Virus record (IMG/VR): IMGVR_UViG_3300045988_137804
Coordinates: 1-64,000 of that record
Reading direction: 5' to 3' (one strand)
Source: a virus
Length of the DNA: 64,000 nt
The translations under genes were made by a program, and so were the position numbers. A model generated the notes under the pieces. It did no database searches. It had not been told where the DNA came from and saw nothing but the letters and a program-made list of their open reading frames with translations. Shown here piece by piece: positions 1-39,518 of the stretch. Each line of letters opens with the position of its first letter. Positions within the stretch are counted from its first letter, which is position 1.

Positions 1-68
1 TCAAATTCACAGAAGTTTACCAGTTTCCAATCTTTTTTGAATGAATTTATGCTTTTATCAGTATTCAT
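1..68 (-). CDS. C5 DNA methyltransferase paralog, first 22 codons only (gene runs off the left edge of the window)
   Basis: Minus-strand ATG at 68-66, with AAGGGA 5 nt upstream. It reads MNTDKSINSFKKDWKLVNFCEF. From codon 6 onward it is nucleotide-identical to the 5' end of the plus-strand methyltransferase. Confidence 0.4.
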   Translation of the reverse strand, partial: MNTDKSINSFKKDWKLVNFCEF

Positions 69-238
69 AAAAATCCCTTATTTATAGGGGATTGCGCAAT
101 CTCTTTATTCTAGAATTTACCTGTTTTCACCTTTCTTAATTTTAAAAACTCCTCGCTTTCAAGGCATTTGCAACTACCATGTGAAAGCATAAATTCATTC
201 AAAAAAGATTGGAAACTGGTAAACTTCTGTGAATTTGA
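1..238. repeat. Perfect 55-bp inverted repeat (1-55 vs 184-238) around a 128-bp spacer
   Basis: Bases 1-55 are the exact reverse complement of 184-238. The left arm touches the window edge, so the repeat may be longer. Confidence 0.95.
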
Positions 239-1679
239 TAAGTATGCAACAAAATCATACTGTGCAATTCATGGTGTAGATGAATCATTGAATCTTGGTG
301 ATATTACAAAAGTTGATGAGACAAATCTTGAACAATTTAATATGATTTGTGGAGGTAGCCCGTGTCAGGATTTTTCTGTAGCAGGTAAACAAAAGGGTTC
401 TGTTTGGACTTGTAAAGAATGTGGACATGAATATAATCCATTAACAGTTCATTGGGCTGAACGTGATAAGTGTCCAAATTGCAACAGTGAAAATATTGAA
501 AAGACAAGATCATCATTACTTGTTGAATATTTAAGAGTTATCAGAGCAAATAAACCAAATTTTGGAATTTATGAGAATGTAAAGAACATTGTCGGTAGAC
601 AGTTTAAAGACACAACATTTAAATTGTTTACTGATGAGTTGGAAGAATACGGATATAACGTGTATTGGAAGGTGCTTAATGCAAAGAATTATGGTATTCC
701 ACAAAATAGGGAGCGTGTGTATCTGATTTTTATTAAGAAAGATTTGGATAATGGTAAGTTTAAATTTCCAGAACCATTTGATAATGGTGTTAGATTGAAA
801 GATTTATTGGAAGACGTTGTTGATCAAAAATATTATCTTAGCAAAGAAGTTCAAGATAGATTCAAGCTAACTGATGATACTTTTACAAAAAATATTATTG
901 GCACAACAAAACCAGAGTTTAGAACAATCGGTCAAAGAGATTTGGTATATCAGAAAGATTCCGTAATGGGTGCATTAGTAGCAATAGATTATAAGCAACC
1001 GAAACAGATTTTGGATAATGATATTAAAACAGTTGCAATTCCACAAGCCACCAAAAAAGGTTACATAGAATGTGAAATTGGTGGAGTTGCAGATTTATCA
1101 TATCCAGATTCTAAAACTAGACGTGGAAGAGTACAAGATGGTGGTAATATTTGTCCAACATTAACTGCTACAGAGACAGGTGTATGTAGAATCGAATCTG
1201 TTGAAGACAAGCCTAAAGAAAGATTTTTTAGACAAGCATTAGATACATTTGATGATTCCGATGCAGAATATGGAGATACAATTGATGCATTTAATAAAAG
1301 AGTAAATAAATCGGGCTGTTCACCTACATTAACGACAAGACCAGAAGGGTTTAAAACAGCTATTTTGCCAGTAACAAATAATTTACGAGTAAGAAAATTA
1401 ACTCCGAAAGAATGCTTTAGACTTATGGGATTTTCGGATGAAAATTTCAATGCAGCACATAATGCAGGTATTTCAAATTCGCAGTTGTATAAGCAAGCTG
1501 GAAATTCAATCGTGGTAGATGTTTTATATTACATATTTGTTGAGCTGTATAAAGCCATGCCATATCTTTTTGATGATTTAAAGTTAAGCAGTTTCTTCTC
1601 AGGAATCGGAGCATTTGAAGTGGCATTGGACAGATTATACAAAGGAATTAATTTTGGAAATTTTACAAATTCACATTAA
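168..1679 (+). CDS. DNA (cytosine-5)-methyltransferase with motif I at the C-terminus (circularly permuted) and a zinc-ribbon insert
   Basis: Motif order: FCEFDKYA (II), GGSPCQDFSVAG (IV, catalytic PCQ), ENVKNI (VI), QNRERVYLIF (VIII), LTPKECFRLMGF (IX), AGNSIVVDVL (X), then FFSGIGAFEVAL (motif I, FxGxG) at 1593-1616. TTG start with a weak RBS, so the start is uncertain. Confidence 0.85.
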   Translation: MQLPCESINSFKKDWKLVNFCEFDKYATKSYCAIHGVDESLNLGDITKVDETNLEQFNMICGGSPCQDFSVAGKQKGSVWTCKECGHEYNPLTVHWAERDKCPNCNSENIEKTRSSLLVEYLRVIRANKPNFGIYENVKNIVGRQFKDTTFKLFTDELEEYGYNVYWKVLNAKNYGIPQNRERVYLIFIKKDLDNGKFKFPEPFDNGVRLKDLLEDVVDQKYYLSKEVQDRFKLTDDTFTKNIIGTTKPEFRTIGQRDLVYQKDSVMGALVAIDYKQPKQILDNDIKTVAIPQATKKGYIECEIGGVADLSYPDSKTRRGRVQDGGNICPTLTATETGVCRIESVEDKPKERFFRQALDTFDDSDAEYGDTIDAFNKRVNKSGCSPTLTTRPEGFKTAILPVTNNLRVRKLTPKECFRLMGFSDENFNAAHNAGISNSQLYKQAGNSIVVDVLYYIFVELYKAMPYLFDDLKLSSFFSGIGAFEVALDRLYKGINFGNFTNSH

Positions 1680-1699
1680 GCGAAAGGAACTGTCTATAT

Positions 1700-1993
1700 A
1701 TGGATAATTATTGTCTTAAATATTCAATTTATATTTTTGACGAAGAAGGAAAACTTTATGATTTAGTACATTCTAAATTTGGAATAAAAATAATTATGCA
1801 TACGAAAGAGAAAGGTCATAAAGAACCACATGTGCATGTCAAGTACGAAAATAAAGAAGCAGTGCTAAGTTTGATAGATGGAAGATTTATGAAAGGAAAC
1901 ATACATCCAAACAAAAGGAAATATGCGGAAGAATGGGTAATGAATAACAAAGAGGAACTTCTAAAAAGGTATAAAGAAGTGATTGTTTTATGA
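1700..1993 (+). CDS. DUF4160-like protein
   Basis: HKEPHVHVKYENKEAVLSL...G.IHPNKRKYAEEWVMNNKEELLKRY matches my recollection of the DUF4160 pattern (PPHFHA.Y....G.lp......eW......L...W). Confidence 0.55.
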   Translation: MDNYCLKYSIYIFDEEGKLYDLVHSKFGIKIIMHTKEKGHKEPHVHVKYENKEAVLSLIDGRFMKGNIHPNKRKYAEEWVMNNKEELLKRYKEVIVL

Positions 1994-2247
1994 ATCACAT
2001 AGAGAACACAATAGCTGTAAAATATGAAAACTTTAAGGAGAGAATAAACATTATGACGATTAAATTTATTAAAGATGTTGTCTTCAAAGACCAAAAAGAA
2101 GACAGTGTAAAGATTAAAAAAGGAAAGATTCTCACAGCAAAGGTTGTAAGAAACGAAGATGGTAAGGAAGAATATGAGATTACTCATAGGAAAAATACAT
2201 TCATGATTCCATCTTCTATGAAAGATGTAGTATTTGAGATTTTGTAA
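1990..2247 (+). CDS. hypothetical protein (possible small partner of the DUF4160 gene)
   Basis: ATGA overlap with the upstream gene, same strand. No recognisable motif. Confidence 0.45.
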   Translation: MNHIENTIAVKYENFKERINIMTIKFIKDVVFKDQKEDSVKIKKGKILTAKVVRNEDGKEEYEITHRKNTFMIPSSMKDVVFEIL

Positions 2248-2309
2248 ATTTGTTCAGATTCTTTTGGAGAATAAGTAAGTATACAAATAATGATTGCGAG
2301 GTATATAAA

Positions 2310-2819
2310 ATGCTTAACAAAGAACAAAAGAATCTGGTGGAAGAAAATTATAATCTTACATATAAATATGCAAAAGATCACAAGTTGGATATGGAAGAAT
2401 TCAGTGGATTGCTTTCTATTGGTTTGTGTAAAGCTGCGTTAAATTACGATTCAGATAAAACAAAGTTCTCTACGTTTGCATACAGATGTATGGGAAATGA
2501 AGTAAGTAATTATCTGAGAAAAGTTAATGCAGGTAAATACTTGAGACATGATGAAGTATATTCCATGGAAGCATTGAATGAAAACGAGAATAGAGCTATA
2601 GAAGAGACATTTCTTATGACTTCATCGGAGAATATTGAGATAGACTATATGTTCAAGGCTAAGTTTCAGAAAGAATATGACAAGCTGAAAGACCAGGTTA
2701 AGAACATTGTTGCTCTCAAATATCATGGATACACAAACAATGAAGTTGCAGAAATTATGAATATAAAAGCATCTACTATAAGTATGGCTTTGAAAAAGTT
2801 CAAATATGCGCTGGTATAA
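2310..2819 (+). CDS. phage sigma-70 family (ECF-like) sigma factor
   Basis: Region-2-like segment LLSIGLCKAALNYDSDKTKFSTFAYRCMGNEVSNYLRK and region-4 HTH YTNNEVAEIMNIKASTISMALKKFKY. Start moved to the ATG at 2310, which has GAGGT upstream. Confidence 0.7.
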   Translation: MLNKEQKNLVEENYNLTYKYAKDHKLDMEEFSGLLSIGLCKAALNYDSDKTKFSTFAYRCMGNEVSNYLRKVNAGKYLRHDEVYSMEALNENENRAIEETFLMTSSENIEIDYMFKAKFQKEYDKLKDQVKNIVALKYHGYTNNEVAEIMNIKASTISMALKKFKYALV

Positions 2820-2870
2820 ATGCTATATTATGAGATATATAGATAATATTGTGTGTTGCAATAAATCGTA

Positions 2871-2886
2871 ATACTACATGTAGTAT
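2871..2886. promoter_or_regulatory. perfect 16-bp palindrome ATACTACATGTAGTAT in an intergenic region
   Basis: Self-complementary by eye. TTGCAA lies 10 nt upstream and TATAAA just downstream, so it looks like an operator overlapping a promoter. Confidence 0.4.
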
Positions 2887-2900
2887 ATAAATATATCATC

Positions 2901-2918
2901 ACACACTATATATAGTAT
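2901..2918. promoter_or_regulatory. ACACACTATATATAGT operator-like motif, copy 1
   Basis: 16 nt identical (17 of 18) to the motif at 11947-11964. Followed by TAAAAT at 2919-2924. Confidence 0.4.
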
Positions 2919-2977
2919 TAAAATATAGATGAAATGCGAATTTCATTGGTGGAGAATATATAAGCGGAGGTGATAAC

Positions 2978-3502
2978 GTGGGAACAAATTATTACATGAT
3001 GATGAAGGACAAGGAACTTGCAATGAAGTATTTCGATAATGAGTACGAGCTTACAGATACTCCGTATTTTGGCTATGAAGTACATATCATGAAACTGAGT
3101 TATGGTTGGAAACCTTTATTTGAGTGGCATGGGAATGCGTATAAATCAGTAGAAGATATGCTAAAGTTCTTGGAATTTCATAGAATGGATATTGATATTT
3201 TTGACGAATATAATCGAGAATATACCATTGAAGAATTAAAAGAAGAGTTCGTAAGTCATAAAAATGTAAAACCAAGATATATGAAACATATTCCAGAAGG
3301 CATTCCGAATCATACATTTGGTGGTAGAGATTATTTAGCTGAGTCCACTGAGGATGATTATGACATTAAAATGCCATATGACCATGTAGAGTATCATAAA
3401 TTAGATCCTTACAATGAAAAAAGATGGATAGATGAAAGTAGAGAGCCATTATATTTTCACGATAAGGATGGTTATGATTTTACGAAAGGATGGTTCGAAT
3501 AA
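2978..3502 (+). CDS. hypothetical protein
   Basis: GTG start 6 nt after GGAGGTG. 174-aa ORF with no recognised motif. Confidence 0.6.
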   Translation: MGTNYYMMMKDKELAMKYFDNEYELTDTPYFGYEVHIMKLSYGWKPLFEWHGNAYKSVEDMLKFLEFHRMDIDIFDEYNREYTIEELKEEFVSHKNVKPRYMKHIPEGIPNHTFGGRDYLAESTEDDYDIKMPYDHVEYHKLDPYNEKRWIDESREPLYFHDKDGYDFTKGWFE

Positions 3503-3612: not shown

Positions 3613-4477
3613 CAAAAAGAAAAATTTATTGTGGAATATATATGATACGCAATAAAATAAACGATAAAAAATATATAGGTCAAAGTATAGATATATGGTA
3701 TAGATATAGAAATCATTTGAGTGAATCATATAATGTAAACAAAAAAGCTTACAATATGGCAATTCATAAGGCGATAAGAAAATATGGTAAAAGTAATTTT
3801 GAATTAATTGTTTTAGAAGAATGTCCAAAAGAAAAATTAAATGAACGAGAAATTTATTGGATAGAATATTACGATACATACAATGATGGTTACAATCAAA
3901 CAATTGGTGGGGATACATTAAAAAATACAATTGATAGAGCAAATATATATATCGTCTGTGGGATGAAGGAAAATCTATTAAAGACATTCGTGAAATAACT
4001 AAGCATGGAAAACATCAAATTATTCGTATTTTAGAAGGTTATGATAAATATTCACCTGAAGAAAGCAAGAGAAGAGGATTTTCGTCTGCTTCAAAGACTA
4101 GGGGCAAAACTGTGTATAGATATCAAATGAATGGTGAATATATAGATGAATTTTGGTCAATTGCTGAAGCCGGAAGAAAAACAGGAACAAGAAATACAGA
4201 TATAAGTTTATGCTTAAATGGTTCTCAACAATCTGCAAATAATTATAGATGGAGTTTTGAGAAAAAAGATAATATCGGAGAATACAAAGCGGAGATGGCA
4301 AACAAAAAGAAAGCAGTTATAAAATATGATGAGGACAATAATTTTATTGAAGAATTTGCATCAATTACAGATGCGGCGAAATCAGTAGGGCTAAAAGGTT
4401 TATCTGGAATAATAAAATCATGTGAAAAAGATGTTTTGTGCAAAGGGTATAAGTGGAAATATAAATATCAAATCTAA
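3606..4477 (+). mobile_element. GIY-YIG homing endonuclease with NUMOD/IENR1-type DNA-binding repeats; frameshifted, no canonical start (probably decaying)
   Basis: The GIY motif (YCGIYMIRNKINDKKYIGQS) starts upstream of the first ATG (3642). The catalytic frame ends at 3998. The HTH and NUMOD-like part (LWDEGKSIKDIREI..., VYRYQMNGEYIDEFWSIAEAGRKTG..., VIKYDEDNNFIEEFASITDAAKSVG...) continues in another frame that opens after the stop at 3935-3937. The shift falls in the AAATATATATAT run near 3941-3952. Confidence 0.7.
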
Positions 4478-9594: not shown

Positions 9595-9744
9595 ATATAA
9601 AGTTTTATAAAATCTTCGACAAACAGTTTTCAGTATGATTGTACTTGGCTGTAAGTTGTCTGCGAAGCTAGTAAATGGTGAATTAATTAATAAATGTCAA
9701 CCTACATAATAATATGCATAGTTGTCGTGAGGGTTGGCAAATAT

Positions 9745-9833
9745 GGATCATTACATCAACTGGTAAGATGAGCTGCCTCATAAGCAGAAAGCCCTAATAA
9801 GGTATAAACTGGGTTCGACTCCCAGATGATCCA
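9745..9833 (+). tRNA. tRNA-like gene, anticodon CAU, unusually long (20-nt) variable region
   Basis: Acceptor GGATCAT/ATGATCC, D arm CATC-AACTGGTAA-GATG, anticodon loop CTCATAA, T arm CTGGG-TTCGACT-CCCAG. 89 nt, no encoded CCA. Confidence 0.55.
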
Positions 9834-9968
9834 CTGTATCTGAATATTCACAGAATGTGTTATTCGTTTCCTTTCTTTCTATGAACATTCTAGTTCAGAT
9901 ACAATGTTTTTCATAACTTCCTTTTGTTTGGTTGGCAACTTACCATATAGACAAAAAAGTTGCAATAA

Positions 9969-11572: not shown

Positions 11573-11848
11573 ATGATAGAGATTATCGAAACTAATCTTG
11601 CTATAGATGAGAATAAAGATATTAGAGATCATCAGTCTAGAGTAGTTCTTGCAGATGATTGGGAGTCTTATTGCGAAGCATATGAAAAGTATGACGGATC
11701 AAGAGTGACATTTCCATCAAAGAGTCCTGGTGCTAGTATCTATGAAGACAGTAAAATAGAAGATTTAGAATATGACGAGTATCATTTGCATTGCAGAATT
11801 AATAAAGTATATTTTACAGATACAAGATTGGCATACAAAATCAGTTAA
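11573..11848 (+). CDS. hypothetical protein
   Basis: TAGGAG RBS, 91-aa ORF. Confidence 0.5.
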   Translation: MIEIIETNLAIDENKDIRDHQSRVVLADDWESYCEAYEKYDGSRVTFPSKSPGASIYEDSKIEDLEYDEYHLHCRINKVYFTDTRLAYKIS

Positions 11849-32385: not shown

Positions 32386-35300
32386 ATGGTAAGAGTTATT
32401 AAAAGAGATTGCTCTGAAGTTGATTTTGATAAGAATAAAATTTCAACGGCAATCTTAAAGGCTATGAAAAATGGTAGCGGAATTGTTAAACCCAAAATTG
32501 CGGAATCTATTGCAGATGAGATTGAAAAGGAATGTAAGGATCGAGAAGAGATTGATATTTCTGAAATTGAAGCAATGGTATTTGACAAGCTGATTACCAA
32601 AAAACAGAGACTTACTGCAAGAGCATATGAAGGTTATAGAAGTACAAGAGAATTCCAGAGAGAGAATGAGAATACTGTTGACGAGGAAATTCTTGGAATT
32701 GTAGAAGCAAACAACGAAGAATGGAAAGATGAAAATGCGAATAAAAATCCAGCATTAAACCCTACAATTCGTGATTATATTGCTGGATCTGTAAGTAAAG
32801 ACGCAACAAAAAGATTTTTATTATCTCCAGAAATTATTCAGAGTCATTTAGAAGGAATTATTCATTTCCATGATTCAGATTACTTTATTCAACATATGCA
32901 TAACTGCGGATTAGTAAATCTTGAAGATATGCTTCAGAATGGTACTGTTATTAGTGAAACAATGATTGAAAAGCCACATAGTTTTTCTACAGCATGTACC
33001 GTGACTACTCAGATCATTGCTCAAGTTGCATCTAGTCAGTATGGTGGACAGAGTATCTCACTTGCACATCTGGCACCGTTTGTGGATGTTTCCAGAGAGA
33101 AGATCCGTAAGGAAGTGATCAGCGAGCAGGAACTGGTCGGAATGGAATATCCGGAAGATGTGCTCAATGAGATCGTAGAGAGAAGACTGAAAAAAGAGAT
33201 TACAAAAGGTGTTCAAACAATTCAGTACCAGTTAATCACACTTATGACAACAAATGGGCAAGCACCGTTCATCACAATTTTTATGTATCTGAATGAAGCA
33301 AAGAATGAGAGAGAAAAGAAAGACCTAGCGATGTTAATTGAAGAAATGTTACTTCAGAGAAAACTTGGTGTGAAAAATGAAGATGGTGTTTATATTGCAC
33401 CAGCATTTCCAAAACTCATTTATGTTCTTGAGGATGACAATTGTAACGAATCAACAGAATATTGGTATTTAACAGAACTTGCTGCCGAATGCACGTCAAA
33501 AAGATTAGTTCCAGATTACATCTCTGAAAAAGTAATGAAAGAACTTAAAGGTGATGTGTATACATGCATGGGATGTGTTGATGGAAAAGAACTTGTTACA
33601 TATACATATAACAATAATCTTTACGTTGAATCATTTGAAAGAATGTGGAATAGACTTTCTGATAGATTTGAAATAAAACATCAGTATAATGACAACAACC
33701 CAAATCTATATATGGATTTGAGCGATGTAGAAATCTATGACACAGACAAAGGATTTGTTAATACAGAGAGAATAATCAGAAATATATCAACCTCTTGGCT
33801 TGATGTTAATTTTTCCAACGGAAGAAGATTACTTTGTACAGAAGATCACCCACTTACATTAAGAGATGGAAGAACAATCCATGCATCTGAATTAAAATTA
33901 AAGGATAGAATTCTCATTAATTCACATCAGTATAATGAAGAAAATATTGTATTCAATGAAGACAAGGCGTGGTTGTTAGGTTTTATGCTTTGTGATGGAT
34001 GTTATCAAGGCTCTTTATTTTCTTCAATTGCAGCAGAAAATGAAGATGAAATTGCAGATAAGTTTTCAGAAACAATGAAGAAATATTTTGATCTCGATAT
34101 TGAAAAAAAATTACAGCAAAGAGGTAAGAAAGGAACATATTACGATTTGATTGCACATAGTCAGAATGAAAAAATATCTGTGTATTGTAATTATTTCGCT
34201 AAAAAATTCGAAGGTCTGAATAAGATTGATAGACATGTTCCTAATGAAGTATTTTCATGGAATTATTCGTCAAAACTTGCTTTCCTGGCAGGAATGATTG
34301 ATGCAGATGGGTACATTAATAGTTCTCAGAATAAAGGATTTTCTATAGTTCAAATTGGTTCTACAAACAAAGAACTTGCATTACAACAAATGGCACTTGC
34401 ACAGTCTTTAGGTATGCCAGCAAAGCTGTACCATAACCATTACAGTAAACGTAACCCAGAATTGATTAGATACAGAGTTGAGTTTTATCCAACAGATGAA
34501 CTAATTAATTATATTGTATGTAAAAAGAAATATGATAATTATATTGATTCAAATGTATCTAGTTATAATCATGAATCTGAAGTTACTGAAATCAACAAAA
34601 TTAATAAAAAAATGTTTTCTTACGATGTAACAACAACAAGTGAGCATTTTGAAATTAGCGGAATCTATAGTCATAATTGTAGGTCTTTTTTAACTGTTGA
34701 TAGATTTTCTGATAAAGTTGGAAACATTTCTAACGCTAAAAACTTTAATGGAAAACATAAATATTACGGAAGATTTAATCAGGGTGTTGTTACAATTAAT
34801 CTTCCAGATATTGCATTTTCATCTGATGGCGACATGGATAAGTTTTGGGGAATTTTCGAAGAAAGAACAGAATTATGCCATAAGGCTTTAAAGGCTAGAC
34901 ATAACCGTTTGCTTAAAACTTCTTCTGATATTGCACCAATCCTGTGGCAGAACGGAGCATATGCAAGACTTAAAAAACATGAACCAATTGACAAACTTTT
35001 ATTTGATGGATATTCAACGATTTCTCTTGGATATGCAGGACTTTATGAGTGTGTGAAATATATGACAGGAAAATCCCATACAGATGGTGATGTAGGAGAA
35101 AAGTTTGGATTGGAAGTAATGCAAGCATTAAATGATAAATGTAATCAGTGGAAAGAAGCTGAAAACATTGATTATAGTTTGTATGGCAGCCCAATCGAAA
35201 GCACTACGTATAAATTTGCAAAGTGCTTAAAAAATAGATTCGGTGATGATATTTTTATTAAACTTGATGGATTTGATAGAAATTATATTACAAATAGTTA

Positions 35301-35730
35301 TCACGTTCCTGTGTTTGAAAGAATTACAGCATTTGACAAATTTAAAATTGAATCAAAATTCCAAAACCTTAGTCCAGGAGGCGCAATTTCGTATTGTGAA
35401 ATCCCATCAATTAACGTAAATATTCCAGCATTATTGGAAGTAATTAAATTTATTTATGACAATATTATGTACGCAGAAATCAATACAAAAGATTGTTATT
35501 GCGAAGTGTGTGGATACGATGGAGACATTCCACTTATTGACGATGATAACGGTAAACTTGTATGGGAATGCCCTAATTGTGGCAACACAGATAATACAAA
35601 AATGGACATCGCATTTAGAGTTTGTGGTTATGTTGGTACTGCAAAAAATGGTGGAAACCAAGGAAGATATGGAGATATCCACGATAGAGTTTACCACATC
35701 GATGACTTTGAATACGAGGAAAATGAATAA
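32386..35730 (+). CDS. nrdD: anaerobic ribonucleoside-triphosphate reductase (class III), interrupted by an intein
   Basis: ATP-cone start VIKRDCSEVDFDKNKI, conserved MGC|RSFL site split by the intein, C-terminal zinc site CxxC...CPNC and glycyl-radical motif RVCGYVG. Confidence 0.9.
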   Translation: MVRVIKRDCSEVDFDKNKISTAILKAMKNGSGIVKPKIAESIADEIEKECKDREEIDISEIEAMVFDKLITKKQRLTARAYEGYRSTREFQRENENTVDEEILGIVEANNEEWKDENANKNPALNPTIRDYIAGSVSKDATKRFLLSPEIIQSHLEGIIHFHDSDYFIQHMHNCGLVNLEDMLQNGTVISETMIEKPHSFSTACTVTTQIIAQVASSQYGGQSISLAHLAPFVDVSREKIRKEVISEQELVGMEYPEDVLNEIVERRLKKEITKGVQTIQYQLITLMTTNGQAPFITIFMYLNEAKNEREKKDLAMLIEEMLLQRKLGVKNEDGVYIAPAFPKLIYVLEDDNCNESTEYWYLTELAAECTSKRLVPDYISEKVMKELKGDVYTCMGCVDGKELVTYTYNNNLYVESFERMWNRLSDRFEIKHQYNDNNPNLYMDLSDVEIYDTDKGFVNTERIIRNISTSWLDVNFSNGRRLLCTEDHPLTLRDGRTIHASELKLKDRILINSHQYNEENIVFNEDKAWLLGFMLCDGCYQGSLFSSIAAENEDEIADKFSETMKKYFDLDIEKKLQQRGKKGTYYDLIAHSQNEKISVYCNYFAKKFEGLNKIDRHVPNEVFSWNYSSKLAFLAGMIDADGYINSSQNKGFSIVQIGSTNKELALQQMALAQSLGMPAKLYHNHYSKRNPELIRYRVEFYPTDELINYIVCKKKYDNYIDSNVSSYNHESEVTEINKINKKMFSYDVTTTSEHFEISGIYSHNCRSFLTVDRFSDKVGNISNAKNFNGKHKYYGRFNQGVVTINLPDIAFSSDGDMDKFWGIFEERTELCHKALKARHNRLLKTSSDIAPILWQNGAYARLKKHEPIDKLLFDGYSTISLGYAGLYECVKYMTGKSHTDGDVGEKFGLEVMQALNDKCNQWKEAENIDYSLYGSPIESTTYKFAKCLKNRFGDDIFIKLDGFDRNYITNSYHVPVFERITAFDKFKIESKFQNLSPGGAISYCEIPSINVNIPALLEVIKFIYDNIMYAEINTKDCYCEVCGYDGDIPLIDDDNGKLVWECPNCGNTDNTKMDIAFRVCGYVGTAKNGGNQGRYGDIHDRVYHIDDFEYEENE
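33574..34677 (+). mobile_element. 368-aa intein with a LAGLIDADG homing endonuclease inside nrdD
   Basis: Starts at Cys (CVDGKELVT) right after YTCMG. Block B TEDHP. Two LAGLIDADG motifs (LLGFMLCDGC, LAGMIDADGYI). Ends ...IYSHN followed by the +1 Cys of CRSFL. Confidence 0.85.
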
Positions 35731-37719: not shown

Positions 37720-38203
37720 TAAAGTTAGTTTTGAACAGTTTAAAAAAGATTGGATTGATACATTTGGAGATGTAACAGAAGATAAGATTAAAGAGGTTTA
37801 TGATAACATTAAATTGCCAAAAAGAGCTACTGCAATGTCAGCAGGTCATGATATAAGCATTCCATTTGATACAAGTATTAAGAATGGCGAGGTTGTAAAA
37901 ATTCCTACCGGAATTCGATGCAAAATGGATGATGGATATGTAATGTTTGTGTTCCCCCGAAGTAGCATGGGAATTAAAAAAGGAATGGTAATTTGTAATA
38001 CTATTCCTGTAATTGATGGAGATTATTTTGGAGCAGATAACGAAGGTCATATCTTTATTTGTGTCACAAATACATACAAAAAATCAATAGAATTAAATTC
38101 TGGGGATAATATTGTACAGGCAGTTTTCACTAAATTTGGTGTAGCAGATGACGAAAAAATTACAGAAAAACGATTGGGAGGAGTTGGTAGCACTGGATTA
38201 TAA
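37697..38203 (+). CDS. dut: dUTP diphosphatase (trimeric dUTPase)
   Basis: Motifs SAGHDI, PRSSMGIKKG, IDGDYFG and RLGGVGSTG. Confidence 0.85.
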   Translation: MQRIAKFSKVSFEQFKKDWIDTFGDVTEDKIKEVYDNIKLPKRATAMSAGHDISIPFDTSIKNGEVVKIPTGIRCKMDDGYVMFVFPRSSMGIKKGMVICNTIPVIDGDYFGADNEGHIFICVTNTYKKSIELNSGDNIVQAVFTKFGVADDEKITEKRLGGVGSTGL

Positions 38204-38855
38204 ACCTATAGATTTTGACGAATCAAAAGAAGTATGGAAATTATGTGATGATTATCCTGGCAATTATATTAGTAATTATGGAAGAGTTAAAAGGGATTCT
38301 TATACATATCATTATAAAAATGGAAAAATAAAAAATTACAAGCCTATAATAAAAAAATTAACTGAAACTAGCAAAAGGAAAGGTACAATTCAAGGGTATT
38401 TATGTACTCGAATGATTGGTTCTGATGGAAATAGTAAATGTGAAATGGGTCATAGGCTTGTAGCAAAAGCTTTTATTCCTAACCCAAATAACCTACCTAC
38501 AGTAAATCATAAAAATGGCAATAAACATGATAACCGAGTAGAAAATTTAGAATGGACTTCTTATTCTGACAACAATCAACATGCATACGCAAATGGCTTA
38601 AAAGGCGATAATGTTATAATGCTACAAGTTGACCAAGATAATTATATCAAACAAATATATTTTTCTGAAGAATATGCAGCGTTATGTAATTGTTTATCTA
38701 CGAAAAACATTAGAAATAGTTCTGAGAAAAATACGTTAGATTATTATAATAATAAATGGATTAGATTTTATCCAAACAAATACAAAATTACAGTAGACGA
38801 CAACGCAACGGAAGTTCGCAATGGTGGTTTCGGATCTACAACAAAATCTAAATAA
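38148..38855 (+). mobile_element. HNH homing endonuclease (NUMOD4-like N-terminus plus HNH_3 core)
   Basis: WKLCDDYPGNYISNYGRVKR, then HRLVAKAFIPNP...VNHKNGNKHDNRVENLEW. The ATG overlaps the dut 3' end by 56 nt, so the start is uncertain. Confidence 0.8.
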
Positions 38856-38905: not shown

Positions 38906-39240
38906 AACAAATGCATTCCTCTATGTCCCTATGCAATCCAAATTTGCATTTTTTCATCAAAATTGTGTAAATTATTTTTGCACTTTTGTCGAGCGTCAAA
39001 TAAACGAAATAGTTTACAAAATAGACATAGAAGGTAGTGTTTTTGGGAAAATCTAAGAAAATGGTTTTAGTACCCAATTTTTGCTCTATGTCGAGTTCGA
39101 AAAATGGCTTAAAATAAGGCTTTTTTGAGGGTCAAAATCCTAATGAAATACCAATTTCATTCGAACTCAAAATCCACATTAAAAAGTAAAAATAAAGGGT
39201 ACTAGACTTAGCAAATTGCTGGTTTAGTACCCTTTTATAA
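38906..39240 (+). ncRNA. putative ~330-nt structured leader or non-coding RNA (promoter to terminator)
   Basis: No credible ORF. Bounded by the promoter at 38872 and the terminator at 39194-39240. Several strong helices and repeated GGTTT(T)AGTACCC segments. Confidence 0.4.
39194..39240 (+). terminator. intrinsic terminator (long hairpin plus T-tract)
   Basis: AAAGGGTACTA (39194-204) pairs perfectly with TAGTACCCTTT (39225-35). The helix extends through most of the intervening 20 nt. Followed by TTTTAT. Confidence 0.6.
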
Positions 39241-39299
39241 AACGCAAAAATTATTTGCCCCAAAAGTGCAAAATTAGATTACACAATGACATAGAGAAT

Positions 39300-39442
39300 T
39301 TCCCAAAAACGATTTTTGGGAAGAAGATGAAAATGCCGATAAAGCCCGTGGTTGACACGTTTTCTCTTTCCCAAAAATTTTCCCAAAAATGAAGAAAAAG
39401 TTCCCAAAAACGATTTTTGGGGAAAATAGCCATTTTTGGGAA
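39300..39442. promoter_or_regulatory. array of TTCCCAAAAA sites including two 23-bp palindromes
   Basis: TTCCCAAAAA-CGA-TTTTTGGGAA at 39300-22 and 39401-23 (one mismatch). Half-sites at 39368, 39380 and 39433, plus 39040. They flank a TTGACA at 39352-57 upstream of the tns operon. Confidence 0.6.
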
Positions 39443-39518
39443 GCTTTATTCTTACACATGAATGCATTTGTTATTCATCAAAAACTGTATAAACATACAG
39501 ATGAAAGGAGCAAATGCT

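Follow-up and report, generated by a model that had tools for sequence, protein, structure and literature searches.

The first bases of the IMG/VR virus record IMGVR_UViG_3300045988_137804 raise the question of why a phage methyltransferase gene should appear to face a second copy of its own 5' end. Within the window (the whole 64,000-nucleotide stretch analysed herein), bases 1-55 are the exact reverse complement of bases 184-238, with 128 nt between the two arms, and none of the runner-up inverted repeats in the 64 kb comes near this pair in length at close range. Both arms are coding and point outward from the spacer, as the first-pass annotation had described. On the minus strand at the window start, an ATG (68-66) is followed by MNTDKSINSFKKDWKLVNFCEF in a frame that runs off the window edge, with which the outer end of the left arm coincides; on the plus strand, the arm reads ..ESINSFKKDWKLVNFCEFD and continues into a 503-aa open reading frame (ORF; 168-1679), hereafter gene B. 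The first-pass annotation had taken this arrangement for two methyltransferase genes placed head to head, joined by an inverted repeat of 55 nt or more whose inversion would swap their 5' untranslated regions and first codons and could toggle which specificity is expressed; it had also allowed for an assembly artefact. A sequence search found matches to gene B in the window solely at 168-1679 and 55-1, and apart from the 55-nt arm there is no second copy of B in the window.

The sequence lying to the left of the window, which the first-pass annotation had singled out for inspection, is available in a public relative. The protein of 168-1679 is encoded on LR756492.1 (L001), a finished phage genome of 204,597 bp that shares 100% identity with the window between base 47 and base 11679, the end of the compared locus (11.6 kb). 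The two differ at 34 positions, all within bases 1-46. In place of these bases, L001 carries the 3' end and stop codon of another gene, followed by TGAAGAAA and then TTATGCTTT. This gene, A, encodes a 308-aa C5 methyltransferase (matching PF00145) that is co-directional with B and is a different enzyme. A second contig, OIYR01000158.1 (L005), is identical to L001 in the left flank and likewise lacks window bases 1-46. A search of the whole window turned up neither gene A nor the 9.9 kb preceding it, and two copies of B were found in no related contig. Since gene A occupies the left side in L001 and L005 and the window holds a single B, no second methyltransferase gene faces B; the apparent left copy is gene B itself, joined through the other orientation of the intervening segment.

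The source of the window is an uncultured gut phage of roughly 205 kb. It has no nucleotide match amongst the INPHARED phages, and its polymerase is at most 39% identical to that of any cultured phage. Elsewhere in the window, an anaerobic ribonucleotide reductase gene, NrdD (32386-35730), is split by an intein with a LAGLIDADG homing endonuclease, and genes for GIY-YIG and HNH endonucleases are located at 3642-3998 and 38148-38855.

Public contigs were scanned for the spacer between the arms, which identified related loci in both orientations relative to their flanks. In one orientation, found in L001, L002, L003, L005 and L032 and referred to here as OFF, the ATG end of the segment points toward the 3' flank of gene A and opens a leader peptide of only 16-36 aa. 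In the ON orientation, found in L004/L006, L007, L041 and L034/L035, the same end is joined to a methyltransferase gene. By blastn, the 124-nt interior of the segment (58-181) lies on the strand opposite to both flanks in L004/L006, L007 and L041 as compared with L001, L002, L003 and L005, such that the segment alone is flipped and the junctions are reciprocal. In L007 and L041, whose flanks are unchanged, gene A precedes the inverted segment, behind which comes a B-type gene with the start MNTDK(S/R)IN; in the blastn alignment for L007, B and A are both on the minus strand and the segment between them is on the plus strand, and in L041 the ATG opens a complete 536-aa ORF beginning MNTDKRINSFKKDWEPVNFCEFD. 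The flipped segment of L004 and L006 continues in frame into another enzyme, C (252 aa), which matches the DNA methyltransferase family phrog_757 (1e-57). A further enzyme, D (PF00145), lies behind the switch in the OFF state in L002 and in the ON state in L034/L035, the latter behind a variant leader, MIKSINSF. The leader is thus fused in frame to three unrelated methyltransferase genes, namely B (L007, L041), C (L004, L006) and D (L034, L035), and all three share an N-terminal SINSF because the outer half of the gene-side recombination site encodes these residues. In L034 (around 9640-9860) and L035 (around 190-330), the left site of the switch has decayed to AAATTTTCTTTTTACA instead of AAATTATGCTTTCACA, and this copy in front of D may be locked ON.

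Compared with these loci, the window holds both junctions at once: bases 1-68 are an exact ON junction of B, and bases 56-238 are its OFF junction. The ON junction matches the window's own B at 68 of 68 positions, whereas the L007 and L041 variants agree at 64/68 and 63/68, which indicates that the ON reads came from the same strain as the window's B. One other match to the leader end, 22 nt long and exact (1692-1713 of L008), was judged to be due to chance; it falls inside a PHP-domain gene of a Lachnospiraceae metagenome-assembled genome, and an ORF for a FimB-like tyrosine recombinase is found 4.4 kb from it.

In all likelihood, window bases 43-196 are a site-specific DNA inversion switch, or inverton, of 154 bp that is seen here through an assembly composite. 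The element is delimited by two inverted 15-nt sites with a perfect 9-nt core, separated by the 124-nt interior; this is the true repeat, in place of one of 55 nt or more. The left site, in its ON-junction form TAAAAGCATAAATTC, occupies 43-57 on the minus strand with the core TTATGCTTT at 47-55, and the right site, TGAAAGCATAAATTC, occupies 182-196 on the plus strand with the core AAAGCATAA at 184-192 and an outer part encoding SINSF of B. From these two sites and the two of a paralogous element upstream (switch A, as distinct from the present switch B), we derived the consensus TGAAAGMAWAANTTC. Allowing at most one mismatch, it matches twice in the 64-kb window, at the switch itself, and the control loci, 219 kb in total, contain no match. 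Wherever both sites of a switch were found, the distance between them is 123-125 nt. Beyond the left site, bases 1-46 (minus strand) are an assembly-derived copy of gene B bases 193-238, forming the flank of the ON junction and missing at that place in the finished genome.

Switch A is located at 8819-8973 of L001, about 860-1,015 bases to the left of window base 1 and upstream of gene A. It is also 154 bp long and shares the site consensus and the 123-125-nt spacing of switch B, and the interiors of the two elements are homologous (82/129 identical positions, z 7.2). L002 and L004 have its segment the other way round from L001, L003 and L005. The strand of switch B that is sense in the ON state aligns with the strand that gives gene A its Shine-Dalgarno (SD) sequence and TTG start in L001, from which it follows that L001 is A-ON and B-OFF. 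Scanning IMG/VR with a degenerate pattern yielded nine further contigs, and in total nine contigs have switch A in the ON state (L001, L003, L005, L033, L034, L035, L037, L038 and L040) and five in the OFF state (L002, L004, L032, L036 and L039). Both states are found in each of three different upstream contexts, which requires repeated, independent inversions.

The interior of switch B carries what is needed to begin translation in one direction. Its ATG (66-68, minus strand) starts the leader MNTDK, which is followed by the site-encoded SINSF, and the SD sequence AAGGGA (74-79, minus strand) lies 5 nt upstream of it; an SD of the form AAATAAGG followed by a start codon is conserved across an alignment of 16 distinct switches. 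The same alignment revealed a perfect 12-bp palindrome at 90-101, which is GATTGCGCAATC in B-type switches and GCTTGTACAAGC or GCTTACGTAAGC in A-type switches, its symmetry being kept by paired changes; it is a candidate protein-binding site. The palindrome centres, GCGC, GTAC and ACGT, resemble 4-bp methylase or restriction sites. Another palindrome, ATTCTAGAAT (107-116), is conserved in both switch types and contains a -10-like TAGAAT on both strands. The alignment also showed a third, internal half-site, TGAAAGC, at 155-161 on the minus strand, whose sequence tracks the switch type, being TGAAAGA in A-type and TGAAAGC in most B-type elements.

The first-pass annotation had further proposed that a 7-bp hairpin (72-78/87-93) sequesters the ribosome-binding site. 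The hairpin exists, with six Watson-Crick pairs and one G.U pair on the plus strand and a 6-bp stem on the minus strand, and AAGGGA does lie in its 3' arm, but the fold is weak and no better than that of shuffled sequence (z -0.6 to -0.8). The SD of switch A (AAGG) is also in the 3' arm of a hairpin, with a folding energy of -10.6 kcal/mol (z -2.2). Rfam returned only spurious matches of the segment to plant miRNA precursors, owing to the long hairpin-like repeat, and a consensus scan for sigma-70 promoters inside the segment was negative. The phage has a gene for a sigma-like factor of its own at 2310-2819.

Gene B encodes a C5 cytosine methyltransferase (168-1679, plus strand, in the OFF configuration; PF00145, 4.8e-59; TIGR00675, 1.3e-63) with the conserved motifs I-X of the family, including the catalytic PC motif within GGSPCQDFS; its alignment covers profile positions 21-328 only. 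The protein is a circular permutant, in which motif I (FSGIGAFE) is displaced to the C-terminal end (1540-1679), behind motif X, and the N-terminus lies at motif II; once re-permuted, it aligns to TIGR00675 positions 3-328 in one stretch, with 222.6 versus 215.7 bits. It also carries a CxxC...CxxC zinc-ribbon insert after motif IV. The only start available to B in the window is the TTG at 168, and B-proper sequence begins at about 193, directly beyond the 9-nt core. In the ON form, B would have 502 aa, and the first residues of that form, MNTDKSINSF, are probably the natural N-terminus of B. The public annotation DAR44076.1 (503 aa, TTG start, MQLPCE...) is the OFF-state reading, and the protein cluster of B has a single member, the OFF form. 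The TTG and its open frame might allow low expression of B in the OFF state.

These observations leave the 55-nt length of the repeat to be explained. This value is the default largest k-mer of SPAdes, and on its inner side the arm ends exactly with the 9-nt core of the recombination site. If a population has both orientations, its de Bruijn graph at k = 55 would contain a bubble at the segment. The edge leading into B is then predicted to begin with the vertex 184-238, a 55-mer, and the branching at the segment's right end to fall on the vertex 138-192, which is indeed the 55-mer made of the segment end and the 9-nt core. An assembler passing from the ON left junction through the segment to the OFF right junction would produce a contig that starts with the 55-mer reverse-complementary to the first graph vertex of B, and window base 1 would be such a contig start. 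Two other assemblies end nearby: the last base of OIYR01000158.1 is equivalent to window base 192, and the SPAdes contig NODE_6 of ERZ1748977, which is identical to window 9457-51661 without gaps, ends by its coordinates at window base 138. All three ends (window base 1, 192 and 138) thus fall on predicted vertices. We rejected the ends of L006, L032, L035 and L041 as further examples, as their contig ranges show them to be internal chunks. An ordinary de Bruijn contig-end artefact similarly has an arm equal to k (here 55) at the start of a sequence and neighbouring contigs that end at bubble vertices; unlike noise, the bubble here would arise from the presence of both orientations of a real switch. 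The repeat is as long as the presumed k, is located at a sequence end and is absent from L001 and L005, both of which lack bases 1-46. Our conclusion is that it is a composite, produced by the assembly of what was probably a real mixture of orientations, and that no single molecule contains it. By the behaviour of the assembly, both orientations were probably present in the source sample.

The caution of the first-pass annotation about an assembly artefact was thus justified, and its literal picture of two methyltransferase 5' ends placed head to head is that composite. Its suggestion of an invertible switch that alters the 5' untranslated region and first codons of a methyltransferase was also correct. 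The exchange it described, between MNTDK, with its good SD and ATG, and the weak TTG start of MQLPCE, does take place as an alternation at one gene, but 5' ends are not swapped between two genes, and in place of a choice between two specificities, the translation start of a single gene would go ON or OFF at switch B. Nor does the locus have the alternative, opposed 5' ends sharing a repeat that characterise a shufflon or head-to-head exchange, the other side of the switch being the 3' flank of gene A.

Three other accounts of the window start deserve consideration. That the genome truly has the methyltransferase 5' end, or even the entire gene, twice in head-to-head arrangement with a long perfect inverted repeat is what the window literally displays, and a left arm that runs off the window would hide the remainder; yet the finished genome and a second contig, 100% identical elsewhere, have the 3' end of gene A there, no related contig has two copies of B, and the arm equals the SPAdes k and stops exactly at the site core; such a duplication is exceedingly improbable. 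It is also very improbable that the window start is a biologically meaningless chimera, produced by random foldback or template switching during library preparation or amplification. The junction does fall at a 9-nt inverted microhomology (47-55/184-192), and inverted chimeras classically bear this signature. The same junction, however, is that of complete inversions in the independent assemblies L004, L006, L007 and L041, it creates a perfect in-frame ATG fusion, and a paralogous switch with the same 15-nt sites is found in both orientations across 14 contigs.

A further reading accepts the inversions as real and regards them as old events fixed in separate lineages, the composite start then being derived from two co-occurring strains with no active switching. 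All of the orientation data come from separate assemblies, and the search described below found no recombinase, both of which accord with this reading. Against it, switch A shows both orientations within one and the same flank context on three occasions, and switch B does so with two gene types, B and D, so that many independent inversions would be required. Moreover, the ON junction in the window shows no difference from the B allele that the window itself carries, and the 15-nt sites, their spacing and the internal palindromes are conserved, as would be expected of a maintained machine. We consider fixed inversions unlikely, and favour an inverton that would be switching actively within one population.

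Judged by their Pfam labels, the genes called between -10 kb and +72 kb of the switch include no dedicated serine or tyrosine recombinase, and none was detected in the related loci. The only recombinase-like gene product in that interval is a TnsB-type DDE transposase. Searches with phmmer, using sequences of Hin, Gin, XerD and FimB, returned nothing in the window or in L001-L007 and L032-L041, while the enzyme of L016 was detected as a positive control; regular expressions for serine and tyrosine recombinase motifs gave nothing relevant. The L016 enzyme, a 501-aa large serine recombinase (1658-3163) in a relative from another sample, occupies the position of a 2,394-aa DUF6273 gene in the phage of the window. 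Many small IMG/VR contigs have nearly identical copies of the enzyme, and it looks like a mobile element or integrase; as its close IMG/VR relatives are not on switch-bearing contigs, we rejected it as the invertase. The recombinase may therefore be encoded away from the switch, either supplied by the host or of an unrecognised type. The TnsB gene itself belongs to a Tn7/Tn5053-like module within the phage genome (39853-44318; TnsB with HTH_TnsB and Mu-transpos_C domains, TniB and TniQ). Just upstream of it, bases 38960-39450 are dense in direct and inverted repeats of TTCCCAAAAA(C/T)G, including a 27-nt inverted pair (38962-38988 and 39261-39287), and this cluster could be a transposon end or an origin.

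As for the mechanism, the recombinase is proposed to exchange strands within the identical core of the sites, which is 13 nt long in switch A versus 9 nt in switch B, such that the inner half-sites would travel with the segment and the outer halves would stay with the flanks. The gene-side outer half would thereby serve as codons 6-10 (SINSF) of the methyltransferase. An SD, an ATG and an in-frame fusion exist together in one orientation only. In the ON state, the SD, ATG and MNTDK are joined in frame to B (MNTDKSINSFKKDW...), whereas in the OFF state, represented by window 56-1679 and the finished genome, the ATG reads backward into the 3' flank of gene A, specifying a 16-aa peptide, and B is without SD or ATG. 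Inversion and in-frame fusion are seen directly in the sequences; an ON/OFF effect on translation, like the rate of switching, is inferred. A plausible role for such a switch would be bet-hedging of virion methylation. Methylated progeny resist Type II restriction and are sensitive to methylation-dependent nucleases, and for unmethylated progeny the reverse holds; a mixed burst could hedge across hosts, some with classical restriction-modification and others with restriction that depends on methylation.

Both configurations, ON and OFF, are seen repeatedly across many contigs. We also tentatively advance a broader picture, which we hold as a possibility somewhat short of an even chance. A very large, lytic-type gut phage may possess its own two-switch 'phasevarion', in which paralogous 154-bp start-codon invertons would independently toggle adjacent orphan methyltransferases, giving up to four epigenetic virion types per burst and hedging between restriction types. 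The module, re-used before at least three unrelated methyltransferase genes, would be driven by a recombinase that is not encoded nearby.

The proposed switch can be compared with several known systems. The fimS element of the E. coli type 1 fimbriae, inverted by the tyrosine recombinases FimB and FimE, has 9-bp repeats. Like fimS and the promoter invertons of gut bacteria, the present element is short, has short inverted repeats, and would set the adjacent gene ON or OFF in a mixed population. Unlike fimS, it brings with it the SD, the start codon and the five leading codons of its target, and one repeat lies inside coding sequence; no promoter was identified in the element, no recombinase gene adjoins it, and it is located in a phage genome with a DNA methyltransferase as its target. 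C. difficile has several unlinked small switches between promoter and coding sequence, such as those of cwpV and flgB, on which RecV acts in trans, and the two switches described here are likewise without an adjacent recombinase. The cwpV and flgB switches, however, are bacterial, act via terminator formation or the 5' untranslated region, and do not carry the start codon. Amongst phages, the Mu G (Gin) and P1 C (Cin) segments, like the Hin segment of Salmonella, are kilobase segments with 26-bp sites, an enhancer and an adjacent serine invertase, and yield alternative tail-fibre C-termini. They share with the present element a phage-borne, site-specific inversion that produces, or in the present case would produce, two virion types, but no Hin- or Gin-like protein was detected here and, at 154 bp, the element is far from kilobase size.

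Formally, the switch belongs to the 'partial intergenic' class described in bacteria. Partial intergenic and gene-altering programmed inversions are widespread in bacteria (Milman et al. 2023, PMC9881135; Chanin et al., PMC10028968); those surveyed, in bacterial isolates, are described as mostly longer, shufflon-type inversions that swap homologous coding modules (PMC9881135, PMC10028968). As in that class, one repeat lies within the gene and the other outside it, and inversion alters the product, whereas the 154-bp element exchanges nothing, only attaching or detaching a translation start, and is found in a phage. Type I epigenetic invertons, in which shuffling of hsdS half-genes (e.g. SpnD39III) shifts specificity, are located in bacterial chromosomes, usually with an adjacent recombinase (PMC7672463). 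There, as would also hold for the present switch, inversion alters genome methylation in a heritable and reversible manner; here, by contrast, the targets are orphan-type C5 methyltransferases in a phage, which would be set ON or OFF at the start codon. The literature that we searched contained no report of inverton-controlled C5 methyltransferases in phages.

More generally, a perfect k-length inverted repeat at a contig end can mark a real inverton and could be mined systematically, and the 15-nt consensus with its 124-nt spacing provides a handle for finding the recombinase. Phage methyltransferases are usually viewed as constitutive anti-restriction armour. If the reading proposed here is true, programmed ON/OFF control would imply that phages, like bacteria with phase-variable restriction-modification, diversify an epigenetic coat of their own, and this would bear on host range, on the interpretation of phage methylomes and on the design of phage therapy.
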